Part shown: in pieces, positions 40,701 to 64,000 of the stretch
Position numbering within the stretch: the first letter of the stretch is position 1
Layout of the letters: each line of letters starts with the position of its first letter
From: Marsupella aquatica
Taxonomy: Eukaryota; Plantae; Marchantiophyta
NCBI GenBank assembly: GCA_973895155.1
Contig: OZ316891.1
Span: 11,778,771-11,842,770 of the forward strand
DNA length: 64,000 nt
Reading direction: 5' to 3'
Translations under genes and position numbers: made by a program
The notes under the pieces: generated by a model
Told to the model about the DNA's origin: nothing
Seen by the model: the letters and a program-made list of their open reading frames with translations, nothing else
The model's database searches: none

Positions 40701-42971
40701 TTTTGTAATGGTACTCAATTTGATAGGTGTTGCAATAAGGATTTCATTGCATGAAAGATGTAGTTTAGTAAGTAATTATAAATTTGCACAAAAGAGATTA
40801 CAATGTATAATTAAAGTGAAACTCCATCATTCTATTTATTAAATATGAATTTTCTTTTGTTCACTTTCAGGCCCCTAAATGTTTACTTTGTTAGGGGAAA
40901 ACTTAACAGATTAATGTTTTATAAAGATTTATAATTTTAATTTTTAGTTAAATTCATTTTTTAATAGAATCATATAATTATTGCCCTTCAAGGCTTTGGC
41001 ATCTTTGAATTTGGCAGCTTTTATAGAACAAGATGTCCGAGAAAATGAGAAGTGTGACCTCACACGGAGAAGCATGTTTTTAAATTTTTTTGGCAAATTT
41101 TGGCAAAAATGATGATTTTTGTACCTAAAAAACACAATTTTGCCCATATTTCAGTTTTGTATTGCAATTGGGTTGTGGTGCAGCCTAGCTTTGAGAAATG
41201 GGAGAGACAACAATTATACAATCCTGAAATATTGTGTAGTTGAGTTCCTCCTGGACCCTTGTTCCCCCATGTCAAAACAGATAAAATTATCACTTCCAAA
41301 AAACCAAAGAAGATAGAAACTTTTTCAACAATCTTCCCAGAACCTCAAAACACTGCATCTTCCCATACCTGTAAAACTAGGCAACCAAATTGACCAACAT
41401 CCAAATCCTAATTTTGGAAAAATGCCTTTGATAAATTACATCACAGGTGCCCAAGATTTACTGCACAGTTTGACACAGTTTACATCATGTTAATTAAAAC
41501 AATATACTCACACACTACGAACCTATCCCTGGCATGGCCCAAACATTAGATTGCATCGGAAGCAAATTGGCAAGCAGCTCCCCAAACAAGAAATGAATCT
41601 CAAAGGTGATACTGGTATTGCAAAAATCCAATGTCATCAAATAAGACCGCTGAGTGAATTATCCATCAGATTTCAGAAGCAAAACCTAACATTGAATCCA
41701 AAATGCTATACATATATCATTTGTAGGAGCTCTACTTCAAAAATCTCATTTTTGAAATGACCGTCCTATTTTGTTGTCTAGTGAATCCTACACCAGTACG
41801 TAGAAATTGACCATGCGGCCAGACTTCCAAACAAGTATAAATAGCTAGGGCGGCGCAAGAAAACTTCTGCTAGTCATTTTGTTTCCAATTTTGTTTGCAA
41901 CTGTAGTTCAGACTTGCTCAATGGTCATGCGTCTTGTATTTCACTTGTTGAATGCAAAACTCCATTGACTACCTCTATAATGTCTTAGTCAGAATTTGAG
42001 GTGACGGATAGTTACACCGAGTCATCTCCTATATAACATAGGTGTTTGATGTTTGCCAATTGCTTCTACGCTCCTAGTAGGACACAATTGAGAGGTTAAA
42101 AACTACAGTTTATTGTGCCCATCGTCATCTTCAAAATGAGTTCAAACATCAATAATTTTGCACTTTTATTCATTAAGTTACAAATCACCATATTAATTAA
42201 AACTGGAATTTCTCTAGTCCAGAAGTTGACCTTCAAATTTCTTATTTTACCCCCAAAAGTTCTATAACTTGTTCCCCAAAAGCATACATTTTAGTGGCCC
42301 AATATACACTTTTTGAGGTCTAAAATTACAATCCTAATGCCCAAATTATTAATTAAATAATTCAGTTATCAATTATTAATACTTATTAATTAAAAGACAA
42401 TAAAGTGCTCTTATTATATACAATATAAACAATGAAAAATAGAATAAGACAATATAATAAATTCAAATGACCCATGATAACCAAGTTACACAAACACGAA
42501 AGGTACACCGGTGATGTATTATAAAAGTAAAAAACCTATTTTTATAGGGTCAATACCACGTCTGCCCCAATGCAGGCTCTAGATGGTTTTGACCGGTTGT
42601 TGAATGTATATCAATTACTATGTAAAAATCTATGTCAAGATTATCTCGACCCAAATGTAGGGTCCACATAATTTTGACCCGTTGTTGAATCTATATCTCT
42701 AGCTATTCCCTTTGTATAGGGTCGAGACCCAAATAACCTTTTTCTGAGAACATATCTACAAGTAAAAGAGGATCAACAGCATCTAGCCTCAAATGGATAG
42801 TACGCATAGCTTCACTCTTTTTTTGAGTAAGAATATGTATATCTACAACTCACATCATAACTGTTCAATGTAGGGTCGAGATAATCTAGACCCAAATCTC
42901 ATGCTCCTCCACCCTGCAATATGTATATCTACAACTCACATCGTAACTGTTCAATGTAGGGTCGAGATAAT

Positions 42972-44029
42972 CTAGACCCAAATCTCATGCTCCTCCACCC
43001 CGCAGAATTCATTTGAGCAAGTAAATCTAGACCCTGAGGGGTCATATTTCATATCGCGATTGCAGAAATTGAGAGGCTTTCTATTCCAGAACTTTGTGGG
43101 GAGGTCTCTACACCTCAGGACTTCCGAAACAAATCCCCGATGATTGTCTCTGTAGCGTCCTGTGTACTGATATCCAATTAATGTCTTTGCAAGGTCGTTG
43201 ATCGCCTCCTCCATCAATTCCTCCATTGGTGGTAATTGTTGCACTTCATTCTTGACATCCCAAGGAATTTTGTCCGCTGTGACATCCAAGACTGTATGGA
43301 TAACCGAATGAACCCATACCATACTACCCCACCGCTCCGTCAACAATGCATAAATGGCAGCTTGTTGATCTCTGTCCGCTAAAACATTTATCATAGACCA
43401 CTTTGGATGATTGATAAAAAGGTAGTGCTGAAGATTGAAGGCATGATACAATTTCCTGAGCAAAGGCCACAGTATTTTTGGAAAGAATGTATCATCCGTG
43501 GAGTGAAGCGAAAATGAGGAAGGAAACAACCCACAATTCTCTGGATTTGCAAATGCCTTCATTGGAGTGTCATCAAGAAGGAGTGTATTAGTTTCGTCGT
43601 ATAATCCACCATAATGTTTCCAAACAACCCTCAAATCCTTCAAATGAATATTTGCCTTCCCATCGGTAATGTCAGGCCTCTGGATTCCAGTATCGAATAT
43701 ATCTTCTTGTGTGAGAATAAACTTGAATTGCTCTCGCTCTTCTTGACTGAAGATCAAATGAATCATTTCATCCGTCCTGGGTTTCCTTGCACAAGTCCAA
43801 ATGGCAACATCAAATAACGAAAAAGCTGCGATTAAGAACTCGTGAAGATGGGGTCGCTCAACATACATAAAGTTAAACCCTCCACGTCTCCCCCAGTGGA
43901 CACCCTTGACACTTGTCGCACTATGGCGCGGTCCGGAACTTGGCATTTTGACAGAATCCCAACACATTTTGTTGAGGTCAAGAATCAATAGCTTCCGTCT
44001 GATTGGACCGTGAAGTGGAGGCAAGGGTC
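42972..44029 (-). CDS. FCP1/NIF-like HAD phosphatase-domain terminal exon of the element A gene
   Basis: RKLLILDLNK, ERPHLHEFL, FDVAIWT, LKDLRVVW, NTLLLDDTPMKA. The computed ORF starts at TTG, and the domain is preceded by a splice acceptor (TTCTTTGCAG) at 44030. Confidence 0.8.
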
Positions 44030-44416
44030 CTGCAAAGAAGGAACACCAATGTTAGAATTGTAGGAGATAAAATAGAGGAATGCTTGAGATGATCTCAAGC
44101 ATCATAAGTGAATGAACAACAGTCAACATCATACCTATTGTTGGTTGAAGGTCAGTAGTTGAAGAAATCTCAGGACATCTTCAGAGATTATTGTCGACGC
44201 ACTCCACAACTGGTAAGGGCCCGCCTATTTTTGTGAAGGTAGACATAATAATTTAGACGGCTGAATTTCATGACTGTTCAAACTAACTTGGGTTTCAACC
44301 TCACGTGCTGAAAGACCCAAATTCATCTAGAAAGTTATCTCCTAGTTGGTTTTGGATGTCCAAATTTATCCCTCCGGGAAAGGTCTCAACAAGAGCTGGC
44401 TCAGACCAAACTGGCA

Positions 44417-47400
44417 CTAATTTGAACTTAAATCCTTCCTATACTTTCTAGATCGAATAATCTTCTCAGACTGCTCTGTACTGACTTGTTGACCTTTTGA
44501 CGATCCATTAGTCCAGACATAATGAGTAGCACTTGCTTTGAGTGATTTGTAACCAGTTCTACCAATTTCAGTTTCCGATTTCCTAACAAAAGGGAGAATT
44601 ACAGGGCTTCCAGTAGAAGAATTTGTGAAAACAAGCTTATTCTCTGAAGCGCAAAACATTTGGTCCAAGGGAGAGGACGATGCATCTGCCTCGTCCTGAG
44701 GGGGAGTATGGCAGCGACTAGCTTTCTTAGTAGAGAGAATCTCATCCAGTTGAGGAGGGCTTGGAATTGGTTGGCTAACTACATCCTGCAAGGTGGATTC
44801 CCAGCCAACATCCAAGGTTGAAGACTGTTGTTCACGTTGTGCGTCTCCAAGGCCACCCGATGAAGGAACACCTGGAAGGTCGAGATCATCTCGAGCATCA
44901 TTTCCAAATTCAGGCAGTATTTCACCCTCCTCTTCCATGTAGCTTGGGATTTTTGGGCCCTCCGTTTTGTGATGCTCTAAATTCTCCGCAAATACTTCCT
45001 CAAAAACACTGGTTTCCACCGGAGCTATGTCTGAGGCCGCCTCTTCTATAAGAATGAGGGGACCGGCAGTAATTTCCTGAGATGCTAACAACTCTTTGGG
45101 TGGCACATATAAAACCTGCTTGTTGTCATGGAGGAGCTGAGCAAAGGCTTCTGTGAATTCCATCTCTTGAGCTGTGTTCGAATACACAAAACAATCCCGA
45201 CCAAGAATGACACAAGCTTTCAATGTCTGTCCTCCATAGAAGAAATCCAACACTGTGTGACCTGGGCAGGAGAAATAATCAACAAGACGCTTTGTCATTT
45301 GCAAAGGCTTTGCTCTCGGATTTACAAAGCCACCCCGCCGACCGACCATCTCATAAGATGGGGCCATCTTCTCCAAAACTTTGACATCACCAGTAGATTC
45401 ATCGAGCTTATCTTTCCCCTTTGATTGGTCTTTGTTGTTCCCAGTAGGGGCCTTCAAAGGCAAGACTGTGAAGTCTTTGTCCCACTTCTCACTGTAGTTC
45501 CAAAACGCATAAAAGTCATCAAAGAAAATTTGGGACCAGTCTGGTTCCTCTTCACAACAAATTCCCCCAAAGATGATTGAGTCTCGGGCTCCAATGAGAA
45601 AATCTCCCTCCTCCTTGGGCAGCTGATCATGGTAGTAGCTCCCGTACTCCAGCTTTGTGTGGACTTTCTTCTCACGACGAATATTTTCAAAGGCACTCTG
45701 AATCTGGCCTATCAATGGGCCTTGACGGACAAAAAAGATTACCAAGATCTCCGTGAGTCGAGTTTGCCATCTGCAAACAATACTCCAGCAAGACAAAAAA
45801 ATTGGCATCTGTCCATTGCCATTGTCGAAGATGACCAAAATCAACAATGGAAAGTGGGCACGTCCTTTGCACCGAGTCAACAATCTCAGGCTTCATTGTC
45901 CTCATCAAATTATCGCTAAAAAATGTGCGATAAGGAGTATCCTCCATTGAAGGCATCCCGCCAAATACCTTGCAATATATCTGCACAAGCCTAACAATGA
46001 GACTTTGCGGAAATGGGTTTTTTGGCCTATTCTTTTTAGGAGGTTGGAAATCCAAACCTCTCCAGCAAGTTGTCTAAGTTTGGGCAACTCACCACGATCC
46101 ATAAATGCAGGCAAATATTGAGTTAGCTCAAACCAAGTGAGTGAATTGGCAAACCCATCCGGATACTTCAAGACGAAGTACTCCACAATTTTTGCCCTCA
46201 GCTTGGTCATGACTTTGAAAGTATGAGCCATATCACTCATTGATTGAACATCAGATTTGTTGGCTGGGTCTTTCTTCAATAAAACCTTCTGATGTTAAAC
46301 GGCACTAAAAACTTTCAGAATGTCGTCACTACTCAGGTCTCCTTCAAAGCATCTAAACAATGCCGGCGTAATTATTTTTGTTGTCTGGGATTTCCCGTTT
46401 ATTTTTGAACCTAACTCCCCTAGACCATCTGGAAGAAGTCCCTTGACCCAATTGATGCACATTTGTCTCCAAGTCAGACTGGAAGAGGTTCTCTTCCAAA
46501 AAAAGCAACCAAAAAATATTCATCATATCGGATTTTCCAGTCGTTATTTTGGCCAAGGCCATAAAATCCTGATCCAAACAGTACAAAGAAAATCTGAGGC
46601 TCGAGACGATCTCGAGGTAGAATTAAGGAACTATGTTGAAATTTATCGGAGAATACATGAAGATAAATCAAATATATAAACTTGACCTTGAGGCTCGAGA
46701 AAATCTCGAGCTAGAAGTGGATTTGAGTTCGAATATACCTGGAACTTTTGATGATCCGTTAGTCTATTGGACCCAATCACGGGTCTCTCCGGACGGCCAC
46801 ACTCGTCAAACTGTCGATTGGCATGGACCATAGTATCAAGAAAATAGGACTCATACTCCATGGCCTTATTAACAGCATTTGCCCTTTGTGAGTGTTGAGC
46901 AAGTATTGTTCTTGGAGTTTTGTCCGAAAGAATTTGTGACTTTCAATATTGCAGACTCTTCGCAACCTCCTTCAACTTTGCATCGCTCTTAGCCCAACTT
47001 ATGATCCAAACAGCTGCCTTTGCCGAGTGTTGTCCACTAATTGCAAGGAACTGCACCTTCTTATTCTTAACACCCCACTCAAACTCTTTTTGATCCTCAG
47101 GAGTATTCTCATAATGGAGCAACTGCGAACTCTCTCTTGAATATGGAATTAAATCCGCCACAACTGGTACCATTCCAGGGTTTCTAACCATGGATTTCGC
47201 GACCTCCATGGCATGGTCTTTATTGAACATCCTATATACCAATACTATAGAAGGCGAATCTATACTAGTGACAGGAATGTCAAAAGTTTCATTCATGCCA
47301 AATGTGTAATACTCCTCAATCTCCTTAAGAACTTCGGCTCCTTCTTTAACGCTCTTTTCTCCCGGAGCATCTCCTGGAGTGCCATCATCATCGGTATGTG

Positions 47401-49393
47401 CAATCACACCCGAGGAAGATGCCGGAATGAGATCTATCTTGGGCGGTACGGAATTTTTTGGTGGATGAGCCTTCTTCCCTTTGCTTTCGGGTTTGTCAAC
47501 CCTCTTCCTCTTTTGAGACACCTTTGCTTCCTTTTTGTCCAAACCAGAGGTCTTGTCTCCTGCAGCTACGGATTTCACTTTACCTGTCTGTCTCCGATGA
47601 GACAACACCCACTTTTTACAAGCATCCTCGTCAAATTCTCCGGCTCCAAACACAAAATCAGGGGATATGGATTCAAACTCCCCCAATTTTGATTCCAACA
47701 TTAGTCTCAAAACCTTCCACGTGAAAGGAGTCATGAATGCATCATCACGATCAAACCCATACTTTCGACAATAAAGGAATCCAAAAATTATGTCGGCTCC
47801 AGATATAGGACTATCTTCAAGCAAATTACTTGTAGTAAAACCCTCGGGGAAGAACCCCATTGATATCACGCTCAGTTGTTTCCTCGCTGCACGTTCAATG
47901 TTAAGATCGCAAGAGTAGTTTTGGGCGTGAAGTCTAATTAAAGCCCACTTTCCTGTCTCATGGTTCTCCACCGTCAAAACCATGTCCTTACCGTTACTCA
48001 TCACAATAGAAACAACAGGCCCTAGTAGGCTACACACCAGAGGATCGACTGATGGAGACCTCGTCTTCACACAAATAATAGTTCCTTCCATGTCTTCAGT
48101 TTCAGCAAGCTCAATGGCCCAACAGAATCCAAATTGACCTTGTCCAGGGCAGGAAACCTCAATTGCATGTTCATCTTCGACTACCAAATTAGGCGATCCC
48201 AATTTTGCACCTGGTATAGCCAAAATGGTGCAATTGTCATAAACATGTACCACAAAACCAAGAAACAAATAGGAAGCTCGAGATGATCTTGATCTTCCTT
48301 CATTATTAGGACAGCTGAGTCGACAGTTTTATGCACTGTAGTCTGACATGTTCCAATGCCACATCTCATCCGGGGAATTTAAAAAGAGATTTCAACCCCA
48401 AGAAATCTAAAAAGAGAACACAACAGTCAGGAACTACAAGAGGCTCGAGATGATCTCGAGCCACCATCTGTTTAAAAGAAAAATACAAGGGCTTGAGATG
48501 ATCTCGATCCTCAGATATATCAGTTGAGGTTTTATTCCATTGCATATCATAAATCAGTCAAAAATAATCCAATGTCACCTATTCGACCACATTCAAAACC
48601 CTCTAACTCAGTGGTTTGTCATCTTCACAAACGAGTTGGAGGACTAAGAAAGTGGTCCAAAAGGCAATGTTGGATCACATTGGATAGGATATTAGTAATT
48701 GAAGTAGACGACATGGAGTCCTTCCAACTGGAAGAAATCGGTCAAGGAATATGAATGAACATAATGGAAGATGGTGATGAATATATTTGGCTCAAGACGA
48801 TCTTGAGCCTAACATCTCAAATGAGTGATCCGAATATCATATTCAACAATGAACATCATATTCAATCAATGATTAAAATCCACTTTCTCCACTGACTTCT
48901 CATACCCACAAACCCGTTTGGATGTCAATAATCAGAACGAGTTGGAGGGTAGAGAAGTCCCTGGAGGAAGGAAAATTTAGATATTTTGGATATGATGTTC
49001 ACTTTTGAATTATAAGAGCTTGAAGAAATCTGACTAGGTAACATGCAGGAAATGCATATTGGCTCGAGATGATCTCGAGCCTCATGCCACTTACATCAAA
49101 TGCAAAATCAATTGATATCACAAACTTTTGAAGCAAAGTAATGTAGAAAACATCAATGGGCTTGAGATGATCTCAAGCCTCAACTGCATCCAAGGAATCC
49201 AGAAACAAGTGGACCAATTGAAGCTCGAGATGATCTCGAGTTAAACCTGAACAATGAACAAAGATGATGAATTATGTTTAATGGTGCGATGGATCTGATG
49301 TGCTGAGTCTAGATGGGTCTGAAGCTCATCCCCAACGGTTGCAAGGTTGTACTCAGCGAAGTCCTCCTTGGAGAAATCTACAACAGTCGACAT
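44417..49393 (-). pseudogene. Element A gene: unknown N-terminal domain + ParB/Srx-like domain + degenerate beta-class N6/N4 DNA methyltransferase; intron-containing, with stops and frameshifts
   Basis: ParB-like: FDIPVTSID...YRMFNKDHAMEVAKSM...FLAISGQHSAKA. MTase C-half: VNPRAKPLQMTKRLVDYFSCPGHTVLDFFYGG...ACVILGRDC. In-frame TGA at 46943-46945; intron 46569-46738; putative first exon 49393-49247. Confidence 0.7.
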
Positions 49394-50755
49394 GGTTGGT
49401 GAAGAGAGGAACGTACTACGGGCTGAGAACTTAAAAACAAATCTCGAGCCTAAACAAAAAATCTTGACCCTATCAAATCTTGAGCCTAAACACAAAATCT
49501 TGACCCTATAAAATCTCGAGGAAAAAAAATAATCTTGACCCTCTAATATCTCAAGGCTAATACAAGGATCTCGAGGCAAGAGCGCAAAAAATCTAGAGGC
49601 AAGGAGACAAGGGACGCGAGGAGGCGAGGAGGCGAATGTGAAAATGGGGAGTTCAAACCCCTGAAGCCACTATAAGCCCCTCGGGGGTCGGCCTTGAGGG
49701 CCGTGCCAAGCGTGCCACGGGCTCGTGCAGGCTCAAGTAGGCTGCCACGCAACCTATTGGGTGCGTACAGTCATTATTACGGTCACACGTGTTGTCATTA
49801 TTGTTATCCGTACTTCAGCTCTGCCGCGAGTTTAGCCGTGCCACAAGTTTAACCAAACTGTTTGATTGGCCTTTTTGTCAGTCAGGATTTTATATATTGC
49901 TTCTCTTTGCTCTCCAGCGGGTCATTCTTCTCATTTTGTTTCACTGCTTGCTCGTTGCTCCCTTTGCCTCTCTCTGCTCTCTCTCCGTCTCCCTCTCCCT
50001 CTCTCTGGCTCTAGATTTCTGCTCTGATCTCTTTCTATCATTATTTTTAAGGGTTGTGGACTCTGCGTTTGTGTTTAGGATATGTCGAGACATTATCATT
50101 TTAAGCTCTGAAGGAGGTCTAAAATAATTGAGCTCCTATCTTTTAGAAAACCAAACCTTTTCAGCTTATACTAATGTCGGTCAAAATCCATTTGGAAGCC
50201 TTTTCCCTCTATTTGATGGCCTTTTAGAAGCTATTTCTCAGTAAACTGGGAACCTACTTTCTTAATTGCACCAAATCATACCTCTAGATCATCTAGAGCC
50301 ATTTATATGTTCTTATTTTGGGTGGCTTATTATTCATAATAGTATCTTTGTCAAATACAATTTCCTTTTTGGCTCGAGATCATCTCGAGTCATAAGTTTG
50401 ATCCTCAAAATTATTAACTTTTGCCTTCTATCTAATCGTGCATTCGGTTGTCCTTCTTCTAATTGGGTTTGTAGATAGTCGGAGGTATAGAATCTGAATT
50501 CGCTATTTAGTGAGATTTCATATTCTACCTCGAGATCATCTCGAGCTAAATACTTCTGAATTTTTACATATTGGTGTTTTTGGTCCCTCTTCTACCCCGA
50601 GATCGTCTCAAGGTAGAAGAGTTTCTTATTTTCTCTATCACACAGTTTTGTGGGATAAACTTCTACACTTGGGTTTTTTGGTTTGTTTTTGTAGTCACTT
50701 TACTTCGAGATCATCTTGAGGTAACTACATCCAACGGTTTGGACCACGTTTTCAA

Positions 50756-51595
50756 AATGGGGATTTTCTTTTGAGGGGACGAGGTTTGCCTTGTAATCGA
50801 CGGAGTGGAAGTTGCTTGCGGGACCGTCCTCAACGTTGACCCGGGTGACTCAGTGCGTAATGTTGATTTGGGAAGTAATCGTATTGGAGTTCTCATTGAG
50901 AAGTGCTATGAGGGATCACGGGAAATTCCTTACCCTTTGCCGCCAATCAGGACCCTATTTGATGTTGTCGACTCCTGCATTATTTGGGATGCCTCTTTTG
51001 CATATTTGAAGTCACAGTCAACTCCAACGACAACACAAATGGATGCCTCTTGTTCTACAAAGGATACGGTTCCCGGTTTTGTACCAGACAAATCTTCGGT
51101 GGGAAGTTTGGGAGACTCGATTATATTTGGCGATGAAGTCGAGCTTTGGATCGGCAATCAGATTGTGGCTCGTGGATTTGTATTCAAGACAAATCCCGAT
51201 GAGACCTATCACAATGAAAGACTTGGCACTTCTAGGATTAGTGTGAAAATATGTGAAGTTTTTCAAGGAAGGGAGAGGTTACCCTTTCCTCATGCTAGAG
51301 CCAATACCGTTAAGGAAGCATTGGACACTTTTGTATTCTAGAATTTAAACGATGTTACTCGAAGGAGTTCTTCCCAGGATATACTAAACGACCTGTCCAC
51401 ACGGGATGTTTTTGGAAATTATAATTTCAAGGATTATAGTTTGCAATCTAATTGGATGACCGAGGAGGTGGAATTGTATGCTAAGGATAATCAGACCAAA
51501 GTGGGGGTTGGCATCATCATAGTTCCTTTCGAGTTAGGTGCAATTGATGATGAGGTTCTTGGGCCAAATCACATTGGGGTTGCGGTCACACGCGT
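50756..51595 (+). pseudogene. En/Spm (CACTA) TnpA/Tnp1-like protein with three tandem domains, interrupted by an LTR retrotransposon
   Basis: Repeated pattern VAxGxV...P...LG....V.I...(I/L)P(Y/F)P....T(L/V).(D/E)....W, seen as VACGTVLNVDP..LGSNRIGV..IPYP..TLFDVVDSCIIW, VARGFVFKTNP..LGTSRISV..LPFP..TVKEAL and VGVGIII..LGPNHIGV. This resembles the Tnp1/En/Spm-like (Transposase_23) domain. Confidence 0.65.
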
Positions 51596-51679
51596 TGTCG
51601 TGGGGATTCTTTGTTTAGTAAGTTCCTTCTAAGTATAGCTTAGTAGTATAGGATAGTAGTTTGAATTCTTGCATTATAT

Positions 51680-52100
51680 GCAGTCTATAGTGTACACGCT
51701 ATAGTGCACAACCTACAATATGCATGCTACAGTGTACGATCTATAGTATGCATGCTACAGTGTAAAATCAACAGTATGCATACTACAGTGTACGATCTAC
51801 AGTATGCATGCTATAGTGTGCATGCTACAGTGTACATCTACAGTCTGCATGCTATAGTGTACAATCTACAGTGTGCATGCTACAGTGTACAATCTACAGT
51901 GTGCATGTTACAGTGTATGATCTACAGTCTGCATGCTACAGTGTACGATCTACAGTGTGCATGCTACAATGTACGGTCTACAGTGTGCATGCTACAGTGT
52001 AAGATCTATAATGTGCATGCTAAGTGTACGATCTACAATATGCATGCTACAGTGTACGATCTACAGTGTGCATACTACAGTGTACTGCCTACAATTGCTC
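51680..52100. repeat. 28-nt (2x14-nt) tandem array inside the putative LTR
   Basis: CTACAGTGTGCATG-CTACAGTGTACGAT repeated about 14 times with decay. Confidence 0.85.
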
Positions 52101-53220
52101 CACTTACGTAACTACAGTACTAGCACACTTACTTGCCTTGGATATGTGACACATGGCTTCCATCCGTGTGCCATGCTTGATCCGTGTGCTTGAGGTGTAA
52201 GCACTATAAATAAAGTGGAGAGGGGTTCTCTCCCCTCACTCCCTATTTTTCATCAACTGAGTTGTGAAGCCTTAAGAATCCATTGGACTTGATGACCTCT
52301 TCTATGAATATAACCTTTATGAAGTAGACCCACTCATACACGCTTGCTTAGAGCTTCGGCTCGGCCAGAGATATTTTGTATGAGTTGGACCTTCAAGTGT
52401 TATCATTTGATAGGAGATGGTTATTAAGTCCTAAAGAGATGCAAAGTGCTCAACAATACCTCCTTTTGGGTGAAACCCTTATGAAGTAGACCTACGCATG
52501 CACGCTGGCTTGGAGCTTAGCTCAGTCAGTGGTAATTTGTACACGTTGGACCTTCAGATAGTGTTTTCATTCAAAAGAAGATAAACTTATTAAGATGAAC
52601 ATTTGCATGTATATACTTAGAGTTAACTCAATGCATAGTATTTGTTTGAAATAAATAATCTTTTCATTGAATGATTCTATATCTTGTCATTATAATGAAT
52701 ATTAGTTGGATGGAATATTTGATAGTATGATAATGCCCAGACCAGTACCTGTTCTTCCTCTCCCTAATCTTTTCCTTATTAGAATTCATGTACTCCAAAA
52801 AGAGATCATGCGTCAGCATATGACTTTTCACTTTGGAGAAGCATTTACAATTGCGGTGTTAAATTTAATAGAGCCGATTGTATATCCTTATGTAGTTTAT
52901 GGGCAAGATTGGGCTTGCACAATTTTTATCTTGTATTGAGATGGATCTCAACAAACCTCCCTCCGATGAACCTTCCGTTTCTTTCTCGTTAGGAGATATT
53001 TGTTTTGTAACTCAACCCAAGGTAGCTGCCAAGGAGGCAATAGTCCGTAGGTATGAAGAAAAGGGTTATGATGTTGTGCTTTCATCCATAAAACCATTCA
53101 TTGTGGTGTCTGCTACCCAGTCTAGAATAGTAATCATGATCTTAACTTAAGTTCTCTCTTGACACTAGCAGCCATAGGCCCGGTGCTTCCTCAAGAACCA
53201 CATTTTTTCCCCAGACATGT

Positions 53221-53315: not shown

Positions 53316-55487
53316 TTGTTCACAATGGTAGGAGGAACTATGGAAGAGATGACTGAGATGTTTATGAGTTTGATGGAGGCCAAAGCACGAAGAGAGGCAC
53401 CTGAGAACAAGAAGAAGGAGGAAGCAAGTCGTATGACCAAGTGCTTACAAGCTTTGTTAGCAAAGTTTGGGCAGTTTGACGGGAGAAGAGCAACCCGTAC
53501 TTGAAAGAGTATTGGATAAAGGTAGCCATCCACAAGATCAGTGAGAAGGTTGTCATTCATGAATTTGCATCATTGGTGGAATCAGAATTGAAAGACATCA
53601 TCACCAAGATTGCTGAAGGAGCCAAAGAGGATTGGAAAATATTTGAAATGAGGGTGAAAGAGGAGTTTTGATTTGAAGATCCAGATCGAGTTACTGCAGC
53701 CACATTCCTTGGTTGGGTACAAGAGAAAAACAAGAAGTTGGGACCTCAAGAATTATTGAGGGAATTCAATAGGTGCTACCATCAACTATCTTCAAAGGAT
53801 CTAACAATAATCAGTCTCAGAAGAGGGGGTCTTTTGATCCGTGCAGCTGATATACCTTTGAGGGTAGAGTTGGACAATGCTCTAGATGTTATTGCTCTAG
53901 ATGCGGATGAAGTCACTTGGGAACAAGCAGAAGCTGCAATCCACAAGGTGACAAAGCAAAGGAGGAGAAGGGAGGTTGATCAAGAGGCGGAAGCTCCCAT
54001 TCTAGACTTGAGAAAAGTTAGAGAAGAAAGCACTACTGATGGAGGAGAAAAAGAAGTCAAAAGCAGCATCACAGAAGGGGGCGACATAGCATCATTGACA
54101 GATATGATAGCAAAGCTTGCTCTTTCAATTCAAGCCTTGGACTCGAACAAAAACCCTAGTGGAACATCACTAGCAGCCTTGAATAAAAACTGGAATTGTT
54201 TGTGATGTGATAGCAAGGAGCATCACAGAAGGGATTGTGGAGAACTAACAGAAGCATTGCGACTTCGACATGTCAAGTTTGTGGAAGGAAAGATTGCATT
54301 TGTTGATTCTGGAGAGCCAATACCAATGAATGTGAACCGAGGAGGAATGAAGCAGATTGTGGAACAGAGAATGAGAGAGAAAGTTTCTAGTGCTGCAGCG
54401 ATGTATGGTGATCCTTCTGTCTTTAGTCTTCAAGTTAAGAAGAATCTGCCTTCCATAGAACATCTTGATATTATTGAGAGGAAGAGACTTGTAGAAAGTA
54501 TCTGGAGAAAATCCAGTTGGGATGTGCCTGTGTTGATCAACTCTATCATTGCGGAAGTAGGAGCAGCATGGAATACCGCTGTGGAAGATAAGAGGAGATA
54601 TGAAGGCACTTCTATGGAAGAAACCCAAAGGAGAGAAAAACAACAGAGACCCAAAGCAGGACCTCGCTTCACACGTCAAGCCAAAGAGAAAGGAGTTCGA
54701 TTTGAGGAGCCTGAAGCGTCCACAAGCAAGAGTCAAGAAGAAATCTCCCATGGAAGCTCAATGGATACCGACACCCCAAAGAAAGGTGCTAAGAAGAGCC
54801 CAGGCTATTTGCTTACTAGAGAGGTGGAGCAAACCGTTGATCCAGAAGTGATTGCTGAGAAATTTTGGCAGCAAGAGGTAGGGGGTTCACTAATGGAGAA
54901 CTTTTTGGAAGTCTTCGTTTAGACTTACAAGGCAAGATCTTGGATAGGGCAAGAAGAAAAAGGGTTTACAAGGAGGGACCTCATGCACTAACTGCCAAGA
55001 TTCTTAGCTATGACTATGAAGATGATTTAGAAGATGAAGAAGAAGAAGAAGAAGAATTGGAGGGAAATGTATTTTGTGCTACCATGAGTCACCATGAAGC
55101 AACTTCAGGTATTCATGGCAATGTAGCCCTACATGAGGTGGATTTGCGGGAAACAATCCGACCGTATTGGGCAAGAGCTTGCTCGGAGATTGAGGTGCAA
55201 TTGCTTGGGGCTGAAGGAGGAATTTGGGCACTCCTAGACTCAGGATCTGAGTTGAATCTAATGTCTAAAGAGACATACCAAAAAGGGCATTGGAAGATTG
55301 ATTGTGACATCAAATGGAATGTCAATTCAGTGGGCACAAGGGCAAATCCCTTGTGGGGAGCATGTCCCGAGATCATGATCAAACTTGGGAATGTGGTAGA
55401 AGCTATCAATGTCTTTGTATTTGAAAAACTTCCATATCCTCTTATTCTTGGTGTTCCTTTCATCACGGAATTACGAGTAGAGACCAT
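53316..55487 (+). pseudogene. Gypsy gag-protease (multiple stops and frameshifts)
   Basis: Fragmented ORFs 53316, 53738, 54257 and 54865 with a zinc knuckle and DSGS protease motif; the frame resumes at ~57170 after the CACTA insertion (RVET/MVLDDGTH). Confidence 0.8.
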
Positions 55488-57166
55488 CACTAGTACATTT
55501 TACCTCCTTTTTCCGATTCTCTCCACATCGGACGCCTTTGTAAAATAAAATTTGAAAAACCATATATCCGATACTACTAGCATCGCAACATGCCATTTTA
55601 ATAGTATCGGATATCGACAATCGGACTTCTATCGGAAAGTCCGATGGTGGGAGAATGGGAAAGTCCGATGGTGGGAGAATGGGAAAGTCCGATGCTAGGA
55701 GAATGGGAAAGTCCGATGGTGAGGGAATGGGAAAGTCCGATGCTAGGAGAATGGGAAAGTCCAATGGTGAGAGAATGGGAAAGTCCGATGCTAGGAGAAT
55801 GGGAAAGTCCGAAGCAATCAAAATGGGATATGCATTTCAGCGGACGCGACATGCTCAGGTCACCCATCTCTTCCTTTAATTGGGTTTCTACTTTCATTTG
55901 GAACTATGAGCTAGGTGCCCATCTCCCTTGACATGTGAACTCTTCAAATTTTCTCAACTAATTGGTCACCCATCCCAATTGCTATTCCTCCAACATGAGC
56001 TTAACTTTGTGGTTCTTATTCCTTACATTGTACATGCAAGCTTAGCACTTTTGTTGTTTGACTTAGAGTGTTTGGGGATTTTATACACTTGTGAGTTTAC
56101 TAAGACCCATAATTTGGACCCATTCTTGATCCATTTTTCTCTATCATGAGATTAGATCTTTGCATCAAGTGACCTATTCTAGTTACCCTATTACATTCCC
56201 CTAGGAGAAACCAATAGAAATCTGGCAGGGGTCATTCATCGATATTGCCCTCCTTCATTAGATTTGATATGGGATAATTATGGCTTATTAGTTATGGATG
56301 ATATTTTGGTCCTTCCAAAGCCTCAGCGTCAATGGCTCCTGATTGTCTCATCTTTTATCAACTATGTTGTTGTTGGACTTGCAACAAAGACTACATGGGA
56401 CAAGCAACCTCCTTCTAGATGATGTATTTTGGACTTGGCATGTTGAGCACATATTTCCGTAAGGGAACAATATGTTGGGTCTTGGAATGAGGCAAAAACA
56501 ACACTGAAGTCCATTTGCCTCAAGTATGAAGTTATTCATGCATGCAAGAATGATTGCATCTTTTGGGAAGAGTATGTCGGTGCAACCACATACCCCATCT
56601 AACACATCAAAACTTTTCATTCTAACACAATCAAAAATTTTCTTTTTGTCATAACCAGACTTTCCCATACTCCCAACATCGGACTTTCCCATTCTTCCAG
56701 CATCGGACTTTCCCATACTCCCAGCATCGGACTTTCCCATTCTTCCAGCATCGGACTTTCCCATTCTTCTAGCATCGGACTTTCCCATACTCCCAGCATC
56801 GGACTTTCCCATTCTCCTAACATCGGACTTTGCCATGTTAGCACAATCGGATATAATATCCGTTATTATTAACTACGGAAAGTTTCTGATCATATTGTAA
56901 CGCACATCATTTTCGTTACAAAAAACATCGGACATATCAATCAAAGTTTCTGTTGAGGGATCCCATGTGTTTTCTAACGGATATGATCCATTTTTTAACG
57001 CATCGGAAAGGTTCCGTTGTCAATTATATCGGAAATGAAGATATCCGAAGCCGAGAGTATGGCATATTGCCATTTTTTGATAATCGGAATTTCCGATGCT
57101 AAAAGAATCGGACGCCGATTGTTCGCAAAAATTGAGCATTGGAAATCAGCTTAATATGTACTAGTG
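55488..57166 (+). mobile_element. Non-autonomous CACTA (En/Spm) element, 1679 bp
   Basis: TIRs CACTAGTACA...TGTACTAGTG; 3-bp TSD CAT (55485-55487 and 57167-57169); inverted subterminal 24-nt arrays (GGGAAAGTCCGATGCTAGGAGAAT at ~55636-55811, reverse at ~56657-56835); internal Tnp2 remnant KYEVIHACKNDCIF at ~56520-56600. Confidence 0.95.
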
Positions 57167-57382
57167 CATGGTACTTGATGATGGTACTCACATGGAAAAA
57201 GTGAAGAGCAAGGATGACTTGAAGAAGATTCAATTTCCCATACTTCGGCCAGGTAGTACAAGAGATCGTCGGGAATTTAAAACGGTGGAGGAGTACAGGT
57301 CCGACCAGAGTATGAAGGGTTTTGACTAGGCGTCCCGCTAAGAGAAGCAAGCAGGCAGGATGCTAAGCCTTTAGTCTCGTCT

Positions 57383-58118
57383 ATGGAGGTTCATTCCTCT
57401 TTTGTTGGTGTGAGTAGGACTAGTGAAGTGTGCTATTTTCATAAAGGTGGTGTGAAGAGGAGAGCTCAAAAGATGTTGGAAAAGAAAGAAAAAGATTTGT
57501 TCACATTAGGAGTGTTGAAGGTTGAAGAGAGAATAGAAGGAGTACTAGAGGAAAGGGGATTACCACCCTCTCTTCGAGAGATTATTGGAGACATTGAGGA
57601 AGAAAATGGAGAAGTGGAGGTAGAAAGGGATGTGTATGGTTACATTGAGCACTTTGCAGAAGTACACACAAAGTACAAAATAGTGGACAAGAAGGTGCGA
57701 CCTACAGCAGTTCCCTTGCCATCTGAGGCTAAGGAAATACTGAAGCGAGCAAAGGAGGAGCCAAGTCCTAGAGATCGTACTAAGATTGGGCATAAATTCA
57801 CTGAGGAGACGTTGCTCAAATTAAAGATTGGTGATAAGGGTTTACTAGAGGAAGAGAGAAGAGCCTTCGAGAAGATGATCATCAAACATGAAAAGGCCTT
57901 TTCCTTTTCCATTGAAGAGATTGGATGTGCTGATCCAAGGGAGATCACACCAATGGTAATCTTCACTGTTCCACATGTTCATTGGGACCTTAAGCCAATT
58001 CCTGTGCCACGAGCACTAATGCCTAAGTTGGTGGAGTTATTCAAGGAGAAGTTAGATGCCAAAATCCTTGAGAGAGCAAACGCTCCATACTTAAATCGGT
58101 GGTTCACTGTGAGAAAAA
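57383..58118 (+). pseudogene. Gypsy pol segment up to the start of reverse transcriptase
   Basis: TKYKIVDKKVRP, PMVIFTVPHVHWDLKPIPVP, PYLNRWFTVRK. Confidence 0.8.
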
Positions 58119-60028
58119 CACGTTGACGGACCAAACGAGAAGTGTGATAGGCTTCTCATTTGGGCCACCCCAAATTTTTTCTAAGTGTAAAACGCGACGT
58201 GATACAAACCAAGATTTCCTACAAAATCAAACATTTTCAAGCGCAAAATCAAAACATCTCAAACTTTGACTAGTGAACCTTACGAAACAAGGTAAAATGA
58301 CATTTTGTATCACCAAGTTTTATGGAGGCAATACAAAATATGATACGGGGCATCACATTTCACATTCCTTAACAAGTAAATTCGATGTGGTTCTTTATCA
58401 ATAGAGAATATTCCAAAAAGATACCAACTATGGTCAAGTTAACCCATTAATAATTGTACTATGGTAAAACTTAACTCGACCACAGTACAAACTAAACTAG
58501 GCTCAATCTGAAAAGTATAAATAAAGGACCACAAAAAATAATTAGCTTCATAATTTTGTTTTGTGTCCTCTAACCCATGTTACTCCTTCCTCAATGTTGA
58601 AAGCAATTGTCCATACAAACCCGGATTCAACAAGGCCACCGACTAAACTGCTAGTAGTTATCCTCACTTATCCTCCTTTTCCTTTACTTCAAACCCAAAT
58701 CTGATTCTTCGTATCACATTTCAGATTCTTAATGTTACTTTACCATTCAAAAGTGATAGAGTACTCTTGAAAGCAAAACCCAAATGTGATACGCTGTATC
58801 ACATTTTGGATTCCTAAAGGGTTGAAAGAGGTATTAGTTTGAGTGGGAAATGAGGGTATTGGGCTTGAGAATTAGATTTTGGATATACTTGCTTGAAGAA
58901 TCCAAAATCTGATACGTGTATCAGATTTTGTATTCTTCATAGAGATTTTGTTCTTAACTTATTATCTTGGTTAGAGGGTCAAGTCTACATGCGTAGACAT
59001 TGCTGGTAATTGGAAGAATTTATTAGTGAGACAAATACAGGGAATTGTTGACCAGGTTTTATGGACCAGGAATTGTTGACTAATGGTTGTGGTTGGAGAA
59101 GTTTAGGGAGTGGTTGTTGACTAGTGGTTGTGTACGAAAATATTGACCAGGAATTTTTGACCAGGTTTTGTTGACCAGGAATTGATGACAATGTCTCAGT
59201 TTGCCTTGCTATATAAACTACAACGTTTTCTAGAATAATTGTGAACAAGGATTGATTACATTGAGGTACGATGTTTACAGCCTTTTGCTCAGAGCTCTAT
59301 TGTCGATGTTTTTTTCCTCAGTCATGGATTTGTAGTTGTCATTTCCTAATAATTTCTGATCTTTGAATTCATGTTATTAATCAAGCACTAGATGGACCAA
59401 AGTAATTCATGGTGGATAGAAAAGTACTGTCTTGTTATTCAGTCTGCATCTTTTGACTCTATATACTCTAATTTCTGTGCAAAACCCAGAAAGTTAGGCA
59501 AATTGACTTTTGCATCTCATTGTAGAAATTTTTTGTTTATCATTGGAGTTGTTTTCTATGAATCAATTTCACTGATTACTCCTCAATGACTTAATGAATC
59601 AAAAATATTGATGATCCATTGGAAAGGCCTTGGAATTCCGCATCTTTTGATTATATATACTCTGATTTTCGTCGAAAATTAAGAAAGTTAGGGAAAATCG
59701 AATTTTCCAACTTGTCACAGAAAATAGGCGCGCGCGACTTCGGCGACTTCATTCTGAAGCTTTGCTCAATCATTTGATTTAATTTTTTTTCTCCTTGATC
59801 TTATTCTCTTGAGCTTCAAGTAGAATTCAAGATGAACCTGAACTGAGTTGAGAAATAGTTCCAAACTCTCTCGACAAGCTAAGGTTCCTCCAAGCACGGG
59901 ATTTTGAAAAACAATTTGAGACTCTATTGTCTTGTTTTTCTTGGAGCAATACCAAATCTGATTCTGAGTATCAGATTTTTCATTCCTCAACTGTTAAGGT
60001 GGGAGCTAGTTTATTATTTGCCGTTAGG

Positions 60029-63000
60029 ATGTCAAGCGAGAGCAAGAAGGCTTCCATGGAAAAAATGCAGACTATGGGGTCAATCTGCGACATTATTTGG
60101 CAAGATGAAATGATTTGTTCAGAGGAGAAATTTGTGACCCGATCTTGGTACCTCCGAGATGGGCGAATTGTGGATCCAAACAACCAATACGAAGGACCAG
60201 TCCTATTTGTCCAGATCAAGAAGACGGAGTCAATTACCCTTTCGTTTGGTCCAGTATTGGCGGTGAGCATGGCAGATTTCCAGGAGAAGCGGGGAAAAGG
60301 TACAAAGCAAAAAAAAGCATTAATGTTCCTGGTGATGGCCGAGACAAAGGGATTTTCTTCTGTTGTTCTTACCTATGAGAAATTTGACCCAGTTTTGATG
60401 ACACCGTATGAGGATGATCCTATTGTTACAGAGATTCTTGCTCTCCAGGATCCAAACTTGGAGAGATGGTTTGTGCATTTTTGTAGCCTGAGTGATCCTA
60501 TTCTCTTTCCGAAATTGCAAACATATTACAGACAAGTGATAGGAGATGATCTTGGGAAGTCGCCAAGGAAGTTGAGAATTATACTACCAAAAAAACCAAT
60601 AGAGAGTAGAAGAAGATGAGCCCATCCCCCTGAAAACTACAAGGAAGAAAAGGAGTGGGACATCTGTAAATAGTGATAGCAAAGAGCTTTCAGAGCAAAC
60701 AAATGCATCAGCTGATCAATCAAAGATTCATTTGACGGTTGCTAATAGCACTTTTGACAATAAAAGTGCATCGGGTGCTGCTACTTCTGACCTCAGTCTA
60801 CGCGTCTCCGACATGGCTTTTACAACGGTAAATACATATTCCATTGATCATTGTTTAGAATTATTGGTTTGGCTTGATCTTGGCTAGAATCATGGAACCA
60901 TCAGCTTGGATTGATCTTATATCTGTAATTTGTGGACAGGAGACGGACGAGATGACCACTGCTCTAGAAAGACATGAGACCGAGGCAGCACGCACTGATT
61001 TGGCCATGCTTATGATAACCAAACGCGTACAAAAGACAACGGTCTCTCTGTCCCTTGCAAACTTGATTTTTGATGAAGATGGAATGGAGAGCTCCACTCT
61101 TGTTCGAGCAATTGACCAGTTGCACGTGGAGAACATCAAAACTTTGATGAAGAAAAGCCCTTCAAATTTTAGTGCTCCATTTGTTCTTGTAGTTGAACCT
61201 GAAGATTGCCCAAGAGTCAAAGATTGGGATATCAGCAAGTCCAAACTTTGGAGGTATCGCATAATTGGAGGAAATCATGGAGCAAGGGCAAAGGCAGAGC
61301 TTTACAGAGCATACAAAAAGGAGATATTTGGTCAATTGCAAGCTTGAGGGGGGCAAAAAGGATATCCAATTTCTCCACCAAAAGGATTCTAGTCATTTCC
61401 AATTTACAAGGGGTGGACAAGGTGTTACACCAAATGGCTAGGATTAGTTTGTTGAGATTGGATGGTGAGATCTTGCATGCCAAGTCTTTGGAAGTGTGTC
61501 CAGGCTTTTAGGAAATCCCAATCTTCTTGGAAGTGTGTCAAACCTTTATGGAAGTGGTGTTCAACTAAATCTTTATGATCTTTGAGTCCTTTTTCTCTCC
61601 TTTTTGAGCTAATCCTTTTTGCGTCCTTTTGCCCCCCTCAATCTTGCAATTGACCATTTTCCGAGATTGAAGCTTGGGTTTATGCAGATTTAACCCCTCA
61701 AGATGTTCAATGGTTAGGTTGGTAGCACAATATTGATCAGGAATATAGAAAGAAGATGAATAGAATTGACAAGATTAGAACTTGTCACAAGATATTCATT
61801 GCCAGGGGTGGAAAGAGGACCTCGGACCTTCGTGCAGTCTGTGCTGTTGAGTGCCACATGGAGCATTACATTCCTGGAAATAGGGCTAGCTTACAAACGT
61901 GGGATCCTCTTTTTCAGATTGCCTTTCGGACAGGAACAGTGTGGGAGCTTCAAGAAAAGATTATGAGTATGTATTGCAAGCTTGAATTGAAAGGGCAAAA
62001 GAAAGTGCAAGCACCAGTGATAGTGACGGCCAGCAAGGGGAAGGGCAAGGGCAAGACAAAAGCTCCGGTTCCAAAACCAATTCAAAAGTTGGCTGATGAC
62101 ATGAATCTTACACCTTGGAAAGATATCCAAGGTATCTCCAATGAGACTGTCATCCAAAAACTCTTAGAATGAGTGGTGGCAAAATACATCAGTTTAGAGG
62201 AAATGGGGCACGAGGCCGATACGTACAAAAAGCTTAAAAAAATTAAAAATACATTTGTCCAACTAGCGAATCAAGAGAATTGGGCCGCATGTCGAGCTAT
62301 GTTTCCCAAAGAAACTGAATCGAAAGAGCTCGAGCGATTTGTTGAGGTCATGGCCGCAGTTGTAAGTATTCCAAACCTCAAATTATTTTGAAGTTAATTA
62401 ATTTGATTGTTGTTTAGATTTTAGAGATATTTTATATGATCCAAGTATCAAGTTTATTATTGGACCTCTGGTTTTGTAGTAGTTGAGAGACTTGATTAGC
62501 TGATACTGAATTCAAAATATGATACCGAGTATCATCTTTGGTATTGACCTATATGTTTACTGGGAAATTCAGCCTTAGCAATCCCAGACATGATGTGGAG
62601 TATCAAATTTGTTATTGGTCATTTGTTTAATCAAGATGTCTTCATTTTGTACTTATAGATCAAACTCTGCTCAAAGAGGAAAAAGGAGCCAAGGATTGGA
62701 AATGAGGTTGATGAAGTCGGAGAAGAGGAACTTCCTGCAGATAAGATTCCTCTACGGTTCAGGAATTTTGTGGCCAAAGCAATTGAAGACTACAACAAGA
62801 AGCTTGCAGGCGAGGAAGTCGAATCATCCGAATTCACATGGAAGAATGCTGATGGCGATGTGATGTCCTATGCTCTTCATACAGGAGATGCCAGGGTTTG
62901 CAAGGCATTTTTGCCACCAAAAAATTATACTTTGGCCATAGCTGACATCCCATACGGTTTCAATGCGGTTGGGTCTGAGAATGACGAGAAGGCATTTGAG

Positions 63001-63749
63001 GAGAATGATATCATCGATATGGTGGAGGGATTTGCAAGTGTGACAACAGCTGAGGCTTGGCGCTTTGTTGTAATACATTCTTTGCAGCAGGTTAATAGTG
63101 TTATGAATGCTCTTGGTAAAACCTGCAATGCGGGAATTGAAGCTGGTATTTGGGAGAAGACTAATGTTCATGATCATCCATCAGGTAACAGGTTGGCTTG
63201 GTCTTTGAAAATTGGACAATTGGTTTTCATAGCAAAGATGGAATCAGGACAAGGGAGATGTACAATTTCACAAAAGAAGAGAGTAGAGGAAACATCATTA
63301 AAGTCCCATGCGTAACTGTGAAGTCAGTGACTCTTTTGGGGGAAATAGTAAACCCCTACCAAAAGCCAGTAGCTTTATCACAATATTTTGTGGATCATTT
63401 TAGCTATGAAGGGGATTGGGTTATAGACTTTTGTGCAGGGACAGACTCCACAACCTGTGCAGCCCTCCTCAGTCATCGACATGCTGCAGCAATTGAGTTG
63501 AGCCCTACTCAAGTAGATTTTATTGTAGGGCCAATTTAAACTCTAGACTCTAGGTGGCAATTGACTGAGGAGCATGAAATCCAAGGGACTGGGATTCAAG
63601 CTATGGAGATTCAACCGCCATTTGGTGGACTACAAACTAGCACAGTTATGACTGAGGTTGTCGAGTACGAGGACCATGTAGAGGATGAGGTAGTAGAAGC
63701 ACCTGAGGAAGATCATCCAGCTAATTTTGATGATATGTTGGAAGATTAA
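60029..63749 (+). pseudogene. Element B gene: unknown N-terminal domain + ParB/Srx-like domain + complete beta-class N6A/N4C DNA methyltransferase domain + acidic tail
   Basis: ParB-like: VRAIDQLHVENIKTLM...YRIIGGNHGARAK...IEAWVYADL. MTase: LHTGDA, LAIADIPYG, IWEK, NPYQKP, GDWVIDFCAGTDST, AAAIE. Lesions: MITE at 61330, stops at 61723, 62170 and 63537, frameshift near 63205. Confidence 0.85.
61330..61655. mobile_element. 326-bp MITE with ~33-bp TIRs and a 4-bp TSD (ATTT)
   Basis: GGTCAATTGCAAGCTTGAGGGGGGCAAAA...TTTTGCCCCCCTCAATCTTGCAATTGACC. Removing it plus one ATTT restores the host frame KEIFSEIEAWVY. Confidence 0.9.
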
Positions 63750-64000
63750 CTGATTTTGTATCAAGTTTTGAAAGTTAGACCGGTCAATAAACATTTTGTA
63801 ATTTGTTTTCTTGAAGTAATCAAACAAGTATTTCCCGCTGGTAATCTTGGATATTCTCCCAAGTTCCGTGCACTAAATATGTTGTAAAGAGTAGATTTTT
63901 TAGTCATGAACTTTGGCTAGTAGGGGTGGCTACCTTGTCGCTTGCTTTCTAGTCCCGATCAATATCTAATGTGATACTAGTATCATGTTATGTTTTTCTT

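Follow-up and report, generated by a model that had tools for sequence, protein, structure and literature searches.

What would a bacterial-type DNA methyltransferase (MTase) be doing in a plant transposon, and how recently could it have worked there? The question is raised by a 64,000-nt stretch of Marsupella aquatica contig OZ316891.1 (hereafter the window), in which a first-pass annotation had placed such a domain inside an intron-containing transposon gene. Our analysis indicates that this is an old, selected ParB-amino-MTase gene of a mobile family of plant DNA transposons, present here as a recently broken copy. As to its role, we lean towards a decaying second gene of a terminal-inverted-repeat (TIR) DNA transposon, whose intact product, joining a ParB-like part to a beta-class amino-MTase, would probably bind palindromes of its own element and probably add N6-methyladenine (6mA) to it. 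The domain had already been annotated in Chara, where UniProt names it in members of the family, but the ParB-MTase transposon system seems to be undescribed: in the full-text literature searched, which lacked most subscription papers, no account of plant DNA transposons with a ParB-beta-MTase was found.

The MTase domain itself was clearly recognisable. Six-frame translation located every motif named by the first-pass annotation on the + strand and in the beta-class order, motif IV lying N-terminal to motif I: GD (motif III, 62884-62889), DIPY (IV, 62944-62955), IWEK (63148-63159), NPYQKP (X, 63351-63368), VIDFCAGTDST (I, 63420-63452) and AIE (II, 63489-63497). All are found in predicted exon 3 (62659..63749, +), which reads as a beta-class amino-MTase with an acidic tail, judging by its motifs, PF01555, relatives and fold. 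The proposed membership of the N6_N4_Mtase family also held, the C-terminal half of the MTase scoring 37.5 bits on PF01555 (cut-off 26.7, E 3e-9), as compared with 32-33 bits for intact relatives. The N-terminal half alone matched no Pfam family and was 51-60% identical to 12 uninterrupted relatives, PF01555 being on record for 11 of them. Motif conservation was scored on these 12, which had been found without a motif filter, and on named proteins; both locus scans used motif IV patterns, with a both-motif filter in the fusion set, and those sets therefore cannot show it. All 12 have D[I/V]PY in motif IV and GTGS in the S-adenosylmethionine (SAM)-binding loop, whereas the window reads GTDS, owing to a G-to-D change at 63445. 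Related loci (L) numbered 24 as fetched and 22 as real relatives, L023 and L024 being dropped (E 8e-4, about 50 residues).

In line with this, a family MTase model built from the 12 relatives (predicted local distance difference test, pLDDT, 49.5) retrieved M1.HpyAVI, CcrM, M.MboIIA and M.RsrI first in Foldseek, with E of about 1e-8 for HpyAVI and CcrM; PvuII and N4CMT ranked after these N6-adenine (N6A) enzymes, and METTL3/14 from rank 41 down. An Atlas search with the MTase gave PF01555 clusters throughout, while the PDB sequences held no match to the family profile at E 0.001. Checked by profile against RNA and protein MTase families, the domain was not assigned to them, but to PF01555 and a beta DNA MTase fold: PF05063 (MT-A70/METTL3) had no match in the window gene or the relatives tested, and in the proteins P0002 and P0004 none of the RNA or protein MTase families of Pfam scored above its cut-off. 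We conclude that the domain is real and, on sequence and model, of the beta-class N6/N4 type, bacterial beta N6A enzymes being the nearest to it in predicted fold. It shares with these enzymes (M1.HpyAVI, CcrM, M.MboIIA, M.RsrI; PF01555) the position of motif IV before motif I, the fold and the motif IV Asp, but differs from them in that its gene is split by introns, is fused to ParB, shows 14-22% identity in fold alignments and has no restriction enzyme in sight. Indeed, no restriction endonuclease gene was found beside the MTase in the neighbouring frames checked in the window, L001, L003, L009 and L015, these frames being the ParB exon, exon 1 and a transposase-like gene.

Three exons are predicted for the gene, which is about 1000 codons long, and the MTase occupies the third. 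Predicted exon 1 (60029..60828, +; 800 nt) encodes an N-terminal domain without assigned function and a linker, with about 30% identity to the frame at the same position in L001 and L003. Predicted intron 1 (60829..60939, +) ends at an acceptor where homology resumes, and predicted intron 2 (62365..62658, +; phase 0), which holds one palindrome, recurs at an equivalent position and in equal phase in L001, L002, L003 and L005. Both are of the GT-AG type, so that the intron-containing structure first proposed is retained as a prediction from homology. Between them, predicted exon 2 (60940..62364, +) holds a ParB/Srx-like domain, with GGNH at 61267-61278 (+), and a helical region resembling the ParB helix-turn-helix (HTH). 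Foldseek with a model of this exon (pLDDT 70.4) gave Noc, ParB and KorB as top matches (best E 6.7e-5), and all six matches with E <=0.001 were Noc or ParB. PHROG 1033 (ParB-like) matched the domain with E 7.8e-5, and HTH_ParB was met in L003, below cut-off (E 8.6e-4); no Pfam match to the ParB part exceeded the cut-off. The L009 row of the ParB alignment was out of frame and is disregarded.

The gene is carried by what we predict to be a DNA transposon copy (58117..64000), whose right end and expected transposase would lie past the window edge. The left terminus, AACACGTT (58117..58124, +), stands where a Gypsy pol frame breaks off, and is identical to the first 8 nt of the terminal inverted repeat of related elements; this 8-mer alone is not above chance, and the left end is therefore claimed from the junction evidence. 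Four public runs (X1-X4; at most four samples from two studies, one possibly the source of the window, with unphased contigs) bear on it: in an X1 contig the Gypsy sequence runs on uninterrupted after 58116, and X4 gave four contigs with mixed flanks before 58117. The target of the insertion was a degenerate Gypsy-type long terminal repeat retrotransposon (53600-58116) with an aspartic protease and the start of a reverse transcriptase; it also holds internal tandem and inverted repeats at 55560-56860. Among the relatives, L007, L008, L009, L014 and L015 share one end sequence followed by five different flanks, and three of these five loci are 98.7-99.5% identical. The left end of L017, which begins AACACGTTCGCG, is the reverse complement of this shared right end; the left ends of L017 and L015 match the right ends in five loci as terminal inverted repeats, and L021 ends in a variant of the shared terminal sequence. 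In no locus were the two flanks of a single insertion both present. By these sequence features, the gene belongs to a mobile family of TIR DNA transposons.

A candidate transposase was found in the relatives. A DUF7869 transposase-like protein (181 bits, three acidic motifs) adjoins the MTase gene in five of the 22 loci, which represent two subfamilies of different gene order: in L015 and L017 it lies upstream in divergent orientation, in L002, L003 and L005 downstream in convergent orientation. By the likeness of its motifs it is a putative Sola-type transposase. It is likewise a candidate DDE transposase, one Atlas cluster among those listed giving a DDE family for 11% of its members; the protein had no PDB sequence match and no mention in the literature searched, with the gap in subscription papers noted above. 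The distance from the MTase stop to the transposase stop is about 320-360 bp in L002, L003 and L005, and since the window has only 250 bp past its MTase stop, the transposase of its element would be expected just past the edge. The first-pass placement of the MTase in a transposon gene is thus right as to its carriage by a plant transposable element (TE), in view of the termini, the flanks and the Gypsy junction; the gene is distinct from the transposase gene, none being present in the window.

Decay of this copy had been underestimated. Only a frameshift and a late stop had been reported, and at least seven lesions are present. Besides the 1-nt frameshift at 63203/4 (+) and the premature stop at 63537-63539 (+), we found the GTDS loop, stops in exon 2 at 61723 and 62170 (+), an extra stretch of 21 nt in exon 2 near 61886, an exon-1 frameshift near 60597-60616 (+), seen as a frame change versus relatives, and a secondary miniature inverted-repeat transposable element (MITE; 61330..61655) of 326 bp with 30-nt inverted repeats, GGTCAATTGC ends and a 4-bp duplication, ATTT. 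MITE sequence occurs at high depth in all four runs, each of which also shows the empty site (330-nt skip); as none has the MITE at 61330-61655, this insertion is recent or polymorphic. The stop at 61723 is missing from X1, X3 and X4, that at 62170 from X1, X2 and X3, and the late stop from X1 and X3; the MTase frameshift is missing from X2 and present in X1 and X3, X4 having no coverage there, and the SAM-loop Asp is Gly in X1, X3 and X4. These last three runs also have an extra in-frame codon at 63420. No fully intact allele was seen among the four runs; nevertheless, each of the six checkable lesions is missing from at least one of them, which indicates recent decay. Short X1 contigs diverging at 63336 and 63374 read like a more distant MTase paralogue in the same run.

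From an evolutionary point of view, 93 comparisons were made among the relatives' MTases, of which 83 were set aside because dS was >1 or not estimable; in the remaining 10 (dS <1), dN/dS was 0.011-0.070. Such low values indicate that the element maintains its MTase. Together with the unbroken state of six lesions in the runs, this strong purifying selection agrees with the earlier proposal of a recently functional enzyme, whose activity itself is a prediction. Read depth was flat and low over the MTase region and higher at the left end of the element, a contrast which hints at deleted derivatives, depth not being equal to copy number.

The family is old. A family profile search of 1.84 billion representatives returned 146 proteins with E <=1e-10. 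ParB and MTase occur in one chain in Chara braunii GBG86584.1, Ginkgo Gb_37443, P0204, P0210, P0231, P0239, P0240 and P0304, and from Chara to Ginkgo these proteins retain the G-x-G loop together with the catalytic Asp and P-Y/H. In a midpoint-rooted MTase tree of 56 rows, with long branches, the window copy fell in a close group (100/98), a 31-row group united Chara, Ginkgo and both metagenome subfamilies (98/90), and the 39 family rows were split from 17 prokaryote-type rows (100/99). On this sequence evidence, the family forms a single old clade, to which both Chara and Ginkgo contribute, and was not captured from bacteria in recent times. We reject recent transfer from bacteria, and likewise contamination, on account of the introns, the Gypsy insertion, the deep family clade and plant-like neighbours such as an RPB5 piece, whose best match is Arabidopsis Pol II/IV subunit 5A. 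Two further observations concern the fusions. P0231, P0239, P0240 and P0304 are deep-branching ParB-MTase fusions of 700-1000 aa, three with DPPY and one with DLPY, through which the family may extend beyond streptophytes. The Chara protein GBG86584.1 (P0195) is a predicted 1825-aa protein with two tandem ParB-MTase units, perhaps because two copies were joined in the gene model.

What such a protein could act upon is suggested by the non-coding DNA of the element. Seven dispersed palindromes, TGAT[A/T]C-N2/3-G[T/C]ATCA, all non-coding, start at 58341, 58702, 58787, 58910, 59959, 62520 and 63972 (span 58341..63985). None occurs in 1-58116, and shuffled sequence gave a mean of 0.13 matches, the pattern having been drawn from these very sites. 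No palindrome fell in an exon in the window (0/7), L001 (0/11), L003 (0/20) or L015 (0/5), exon limits being approximate and exons making up about 56-65% of each locus counted. Relatives have versions of their own, CGA[G/T]AC-N2-GT[A/C]TCG, CGAT-N6-ATCG, CGATAC-N3-GTATCG and CGATGC-N3-GCATCG. The general palindrome pattern is clearly enriched in L001-L003, in L005 and in a second, far-diverged element of the window (41900-50800, see below). Confined as they are to the non-coding DNA of the element, the palindromes suggest a protein that would bind its own element and methylate it, adenine being the likeliest base.

From a mechanistic point of view, the ParB-HTH module would address the MTase to these palindromes, recognising them in a parS-like manner and perhaps spreading from them; that a TE protein can bind motifs in its own non-coding DNA is known from VANC21 (PMC5735166). 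The MTase would then add 6mA to the DNA of the element, as its motif IV Asp leads us to expect. Such a mark may serve the element by keeping its expression against host silencing by 5-methylcytosine (5mC), a benefit comparable to that conferred by VANC proteins. Alternatively, it may tune access of the transposase, in the way that Dam controls transposase binding for IS10. A bolder form of this proposal, which we put forward tentatively and consider rather improbable as a whole, is that of ancient, still mobile streptophyte transposons in which a ParB-clamp/adenine-MTase would load at parS-like palindromes in their own introns and ends, spread and write 6mA, thereby forming an endogenous source of plant 6mA.

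Several points weigh against a self-methylating transposon. It could just as well be the transposase that uses the palindromes, and their absence from exons would also follow from coding constraint alone; moreover, enrichment of the general pattern is only borderline for the window element and for L015, and is lacking in L009, L010, L012, L017, L018 and L021. Both structure models are of modest quality, as their pLDDT values indicate. Motif IV is DIPY, not DPPY, although prokaryote-type proteins (e.g. P0122 and P0130) share the IADIPYG variant. The canonical ParB CTPase clamp has an arginine patch, GxxR (GERR), in place of which the ParB-like domain reads GG[N/S/G]H across the family, making clamp behaviour uncertain. 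Finally, the window has one element end only and lacks a transposase. A transposase is also missing from 17 of the 22 loci, most of them too short to tell, but one of these, L001, extends 357 bp past the MTase stop.

Among the alternatives, the one that survives best, though we judge it unlikely, keeps the same element and gene and has the enzyme write N4-methylcytosine (4mC), for instance on the CG ends of CGA...TCG palindromes, shielding them from host 5mC. Palindromes do start with CGA and end with TCG in L001-L005, L009, L015, L017 and L019, and the TGA...TCA form of the window could represent a deaminated CGA...TCG version. PvuII and N4CMT are among the fold matches, and some beta enzymes with Asp in motif IV, such as M.BamHI, make 4mC. 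By contrast, the best fold matches are N6A enzymes, and the window lineage lost its CGs, yet the gene stayed intact until recently. Known eukaryotic 4mC writers have Ser in motif IV (PMC8885841, PMC10406627, bioRxiv 2021.02.12.428880), DPPY versus SPPY in this motif separating 6mA from 4mC writers (PMC8885841, PMC10406627). Ser was not found there in the window, the 12 relatives or the Chara and Ginkgo proteins, all of which have Asp, and this residue makes 6mA the likelier product. MpDN4MT1 and N4CMT resemble the family as prokaryotic-type beta amino-MTases in eukaryotes, but they are host genes for 4mC writers with Ser in motif IV and no ParB: MpDN4MT1 has TSPPY (bioRxiv 2021.02.12.428880) and is described without extra domains (PMC8885841), and N4CMT has SPPY, where the window family has D-x-P-Y/H plus ParB. 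No link to either enzyme was found in this comparison, which was made by motif and domain description, not by tree, and which lends no support to the first-pass suggestion that such elements may have supplied domesticated amino-MTases of plants.

A still less probable reading is that the MTase domain does not methylate DNA, and is retained because it binds DNA or RNA or has RNA as its substrate; DIRS retrotransposons would offer a parallel. These carry Dam-like MTase domains that are likely inactive, and several eukaryotic N6A-MTases have moved to RNA (PMC4738411). In addition, R replaces the first G of the SAM loop in L004 and L011, and in the second window element nothing but the SAM-binding half can still be recognised. 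Against this stand the retention of the G-x-G loop, the catalytic Asp and P-Y/H from Chara to Ginkgo, the rank of METTL3/14 below DNA enzymes, the lack of any RNA or protein MTase family at cut-off in P0002 and P0004, and the DNA-binding fold of the fusion partner. A host (domesticated) gene merely located in repeat-rich DNA is very improbable, for although MTase depth is flat and near the lowest level of the stretch, identity is about 99% in runs labelled as two organisms, and the proteins from Ginkgo and Chara come from annotated gene models with no visible genomic context, the element interrupts the Gypsy frame at 58117 with different flanks there, related copies lie between terminal repeats together with a transposase-like gene, and the window copy is broken by at least seven lesions.

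The self-methylating transposon that we favour has partial counterparts in known systems. Phage ParB-terminase loci encode ParB-MTase fusions (PMC4738411), and one of these, PV036460.1, likewise has a ParB-type domain N-terminal to a beta MTase that scores 63.7 bits on the family profile; its ParB half does not match the family ParB profile, and the plant element has no terminase. PV036460.1 formed a long branch that the tree failed to place, and a phage ParB-MTase is a possible source of the family. None of 443 pattern matches in IMG/VR encodes a ParB-MTase family relative, and among 29 in GTDB genomes one was weakly similar (L025, 29% over 49 residues) and was not used. The chlorophyte-type Dam family (Iyer et al. 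group 2, PMC4738411) also joins a ParB-type HTH to an adenine MTase in eukaryotes, but it is M.EcoKI/M.TaqI-like and found in chlorophytes and chytrids, whereas the window family is circularly permuted, transposon-borne and found in streptophytes; DIPYG is absent from the supplement of that article. C5 DNA methyltransferases are carried by retrotransposons of Symbiodinium (a dinoflagellate) and Klebsormidium (PMC5890265). These and the Dam-like cases share with the present one a TE's own DNA MTase under purifying selection and a proposed self-methylation (PMC5890265, PMC4738411), but they are retrotransposons, whereas here a cut-and-paste-type element would carry a beta amino-MTase with intact motifs and ParB. 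VANC of VANDAL transposons is likewise the second gene of a plant DNA transposon, with short element-specific non-coding motifs that differ between subfamilies; however, VANC causes 5mC loss and the present protein would be a writer, so that the analogy is functional only (PMC5735166).

If this reading is correct, a ParB-type domain acts in a eukaryotic nucleus, an amino-methyl writer on a DNA transposon joins the known strategies by which TEs counter silencing, and plant chromatin houses a self-addressed epigenetic system of bacterial style. Land plants have been reported to have few N6A methyltransferases (PMC4738411), and low-level eukaryotic 6mA and 4mC calls are prone to artefacts (PMC6547475). 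With this family there are a named enzyme, target loci and candidate motifs, so that long-read data already at hand can be used to test the plant 6mA question. Since the palindromes differ between subfamilies, a site-loaded MTase of this kind might also be useful for labelling chromatin.

The window contains further features. The second element (41900-50800) has its genes on the - strand. Its frame 44420-45892 encodes the SAM-binding half of an N6_N4_Mtase (28.1 bits; hhalign 99.5%) with no recognisable motif IV, and an upstream frame with SGQH is weakly similar to the ParB exon (E 3e-4), with no profile match. Also present are a frame for a NIF/FCP1-like phosphatase (42975-44051, 60.4 bits) and a dispersed palindrome peculiar to this element, CTCGAGAT-N-ATCTCGAG, with nine sites by a looser pattern; no DUF7869 gene was found in it. 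The stretches 50775-51341 (+) and 51665-52111 hold a frame with two internal repeats, without a Pfam match above cut-off, beside a 14-bp tandem array; the frame may belong to the second element or to a different DNA transposon. Lastly, an RPB5-like frame at 19408-20334 is preceded by about seven acidic repeats of 22 residues, which would form an unusual N-terminal extension if translated.

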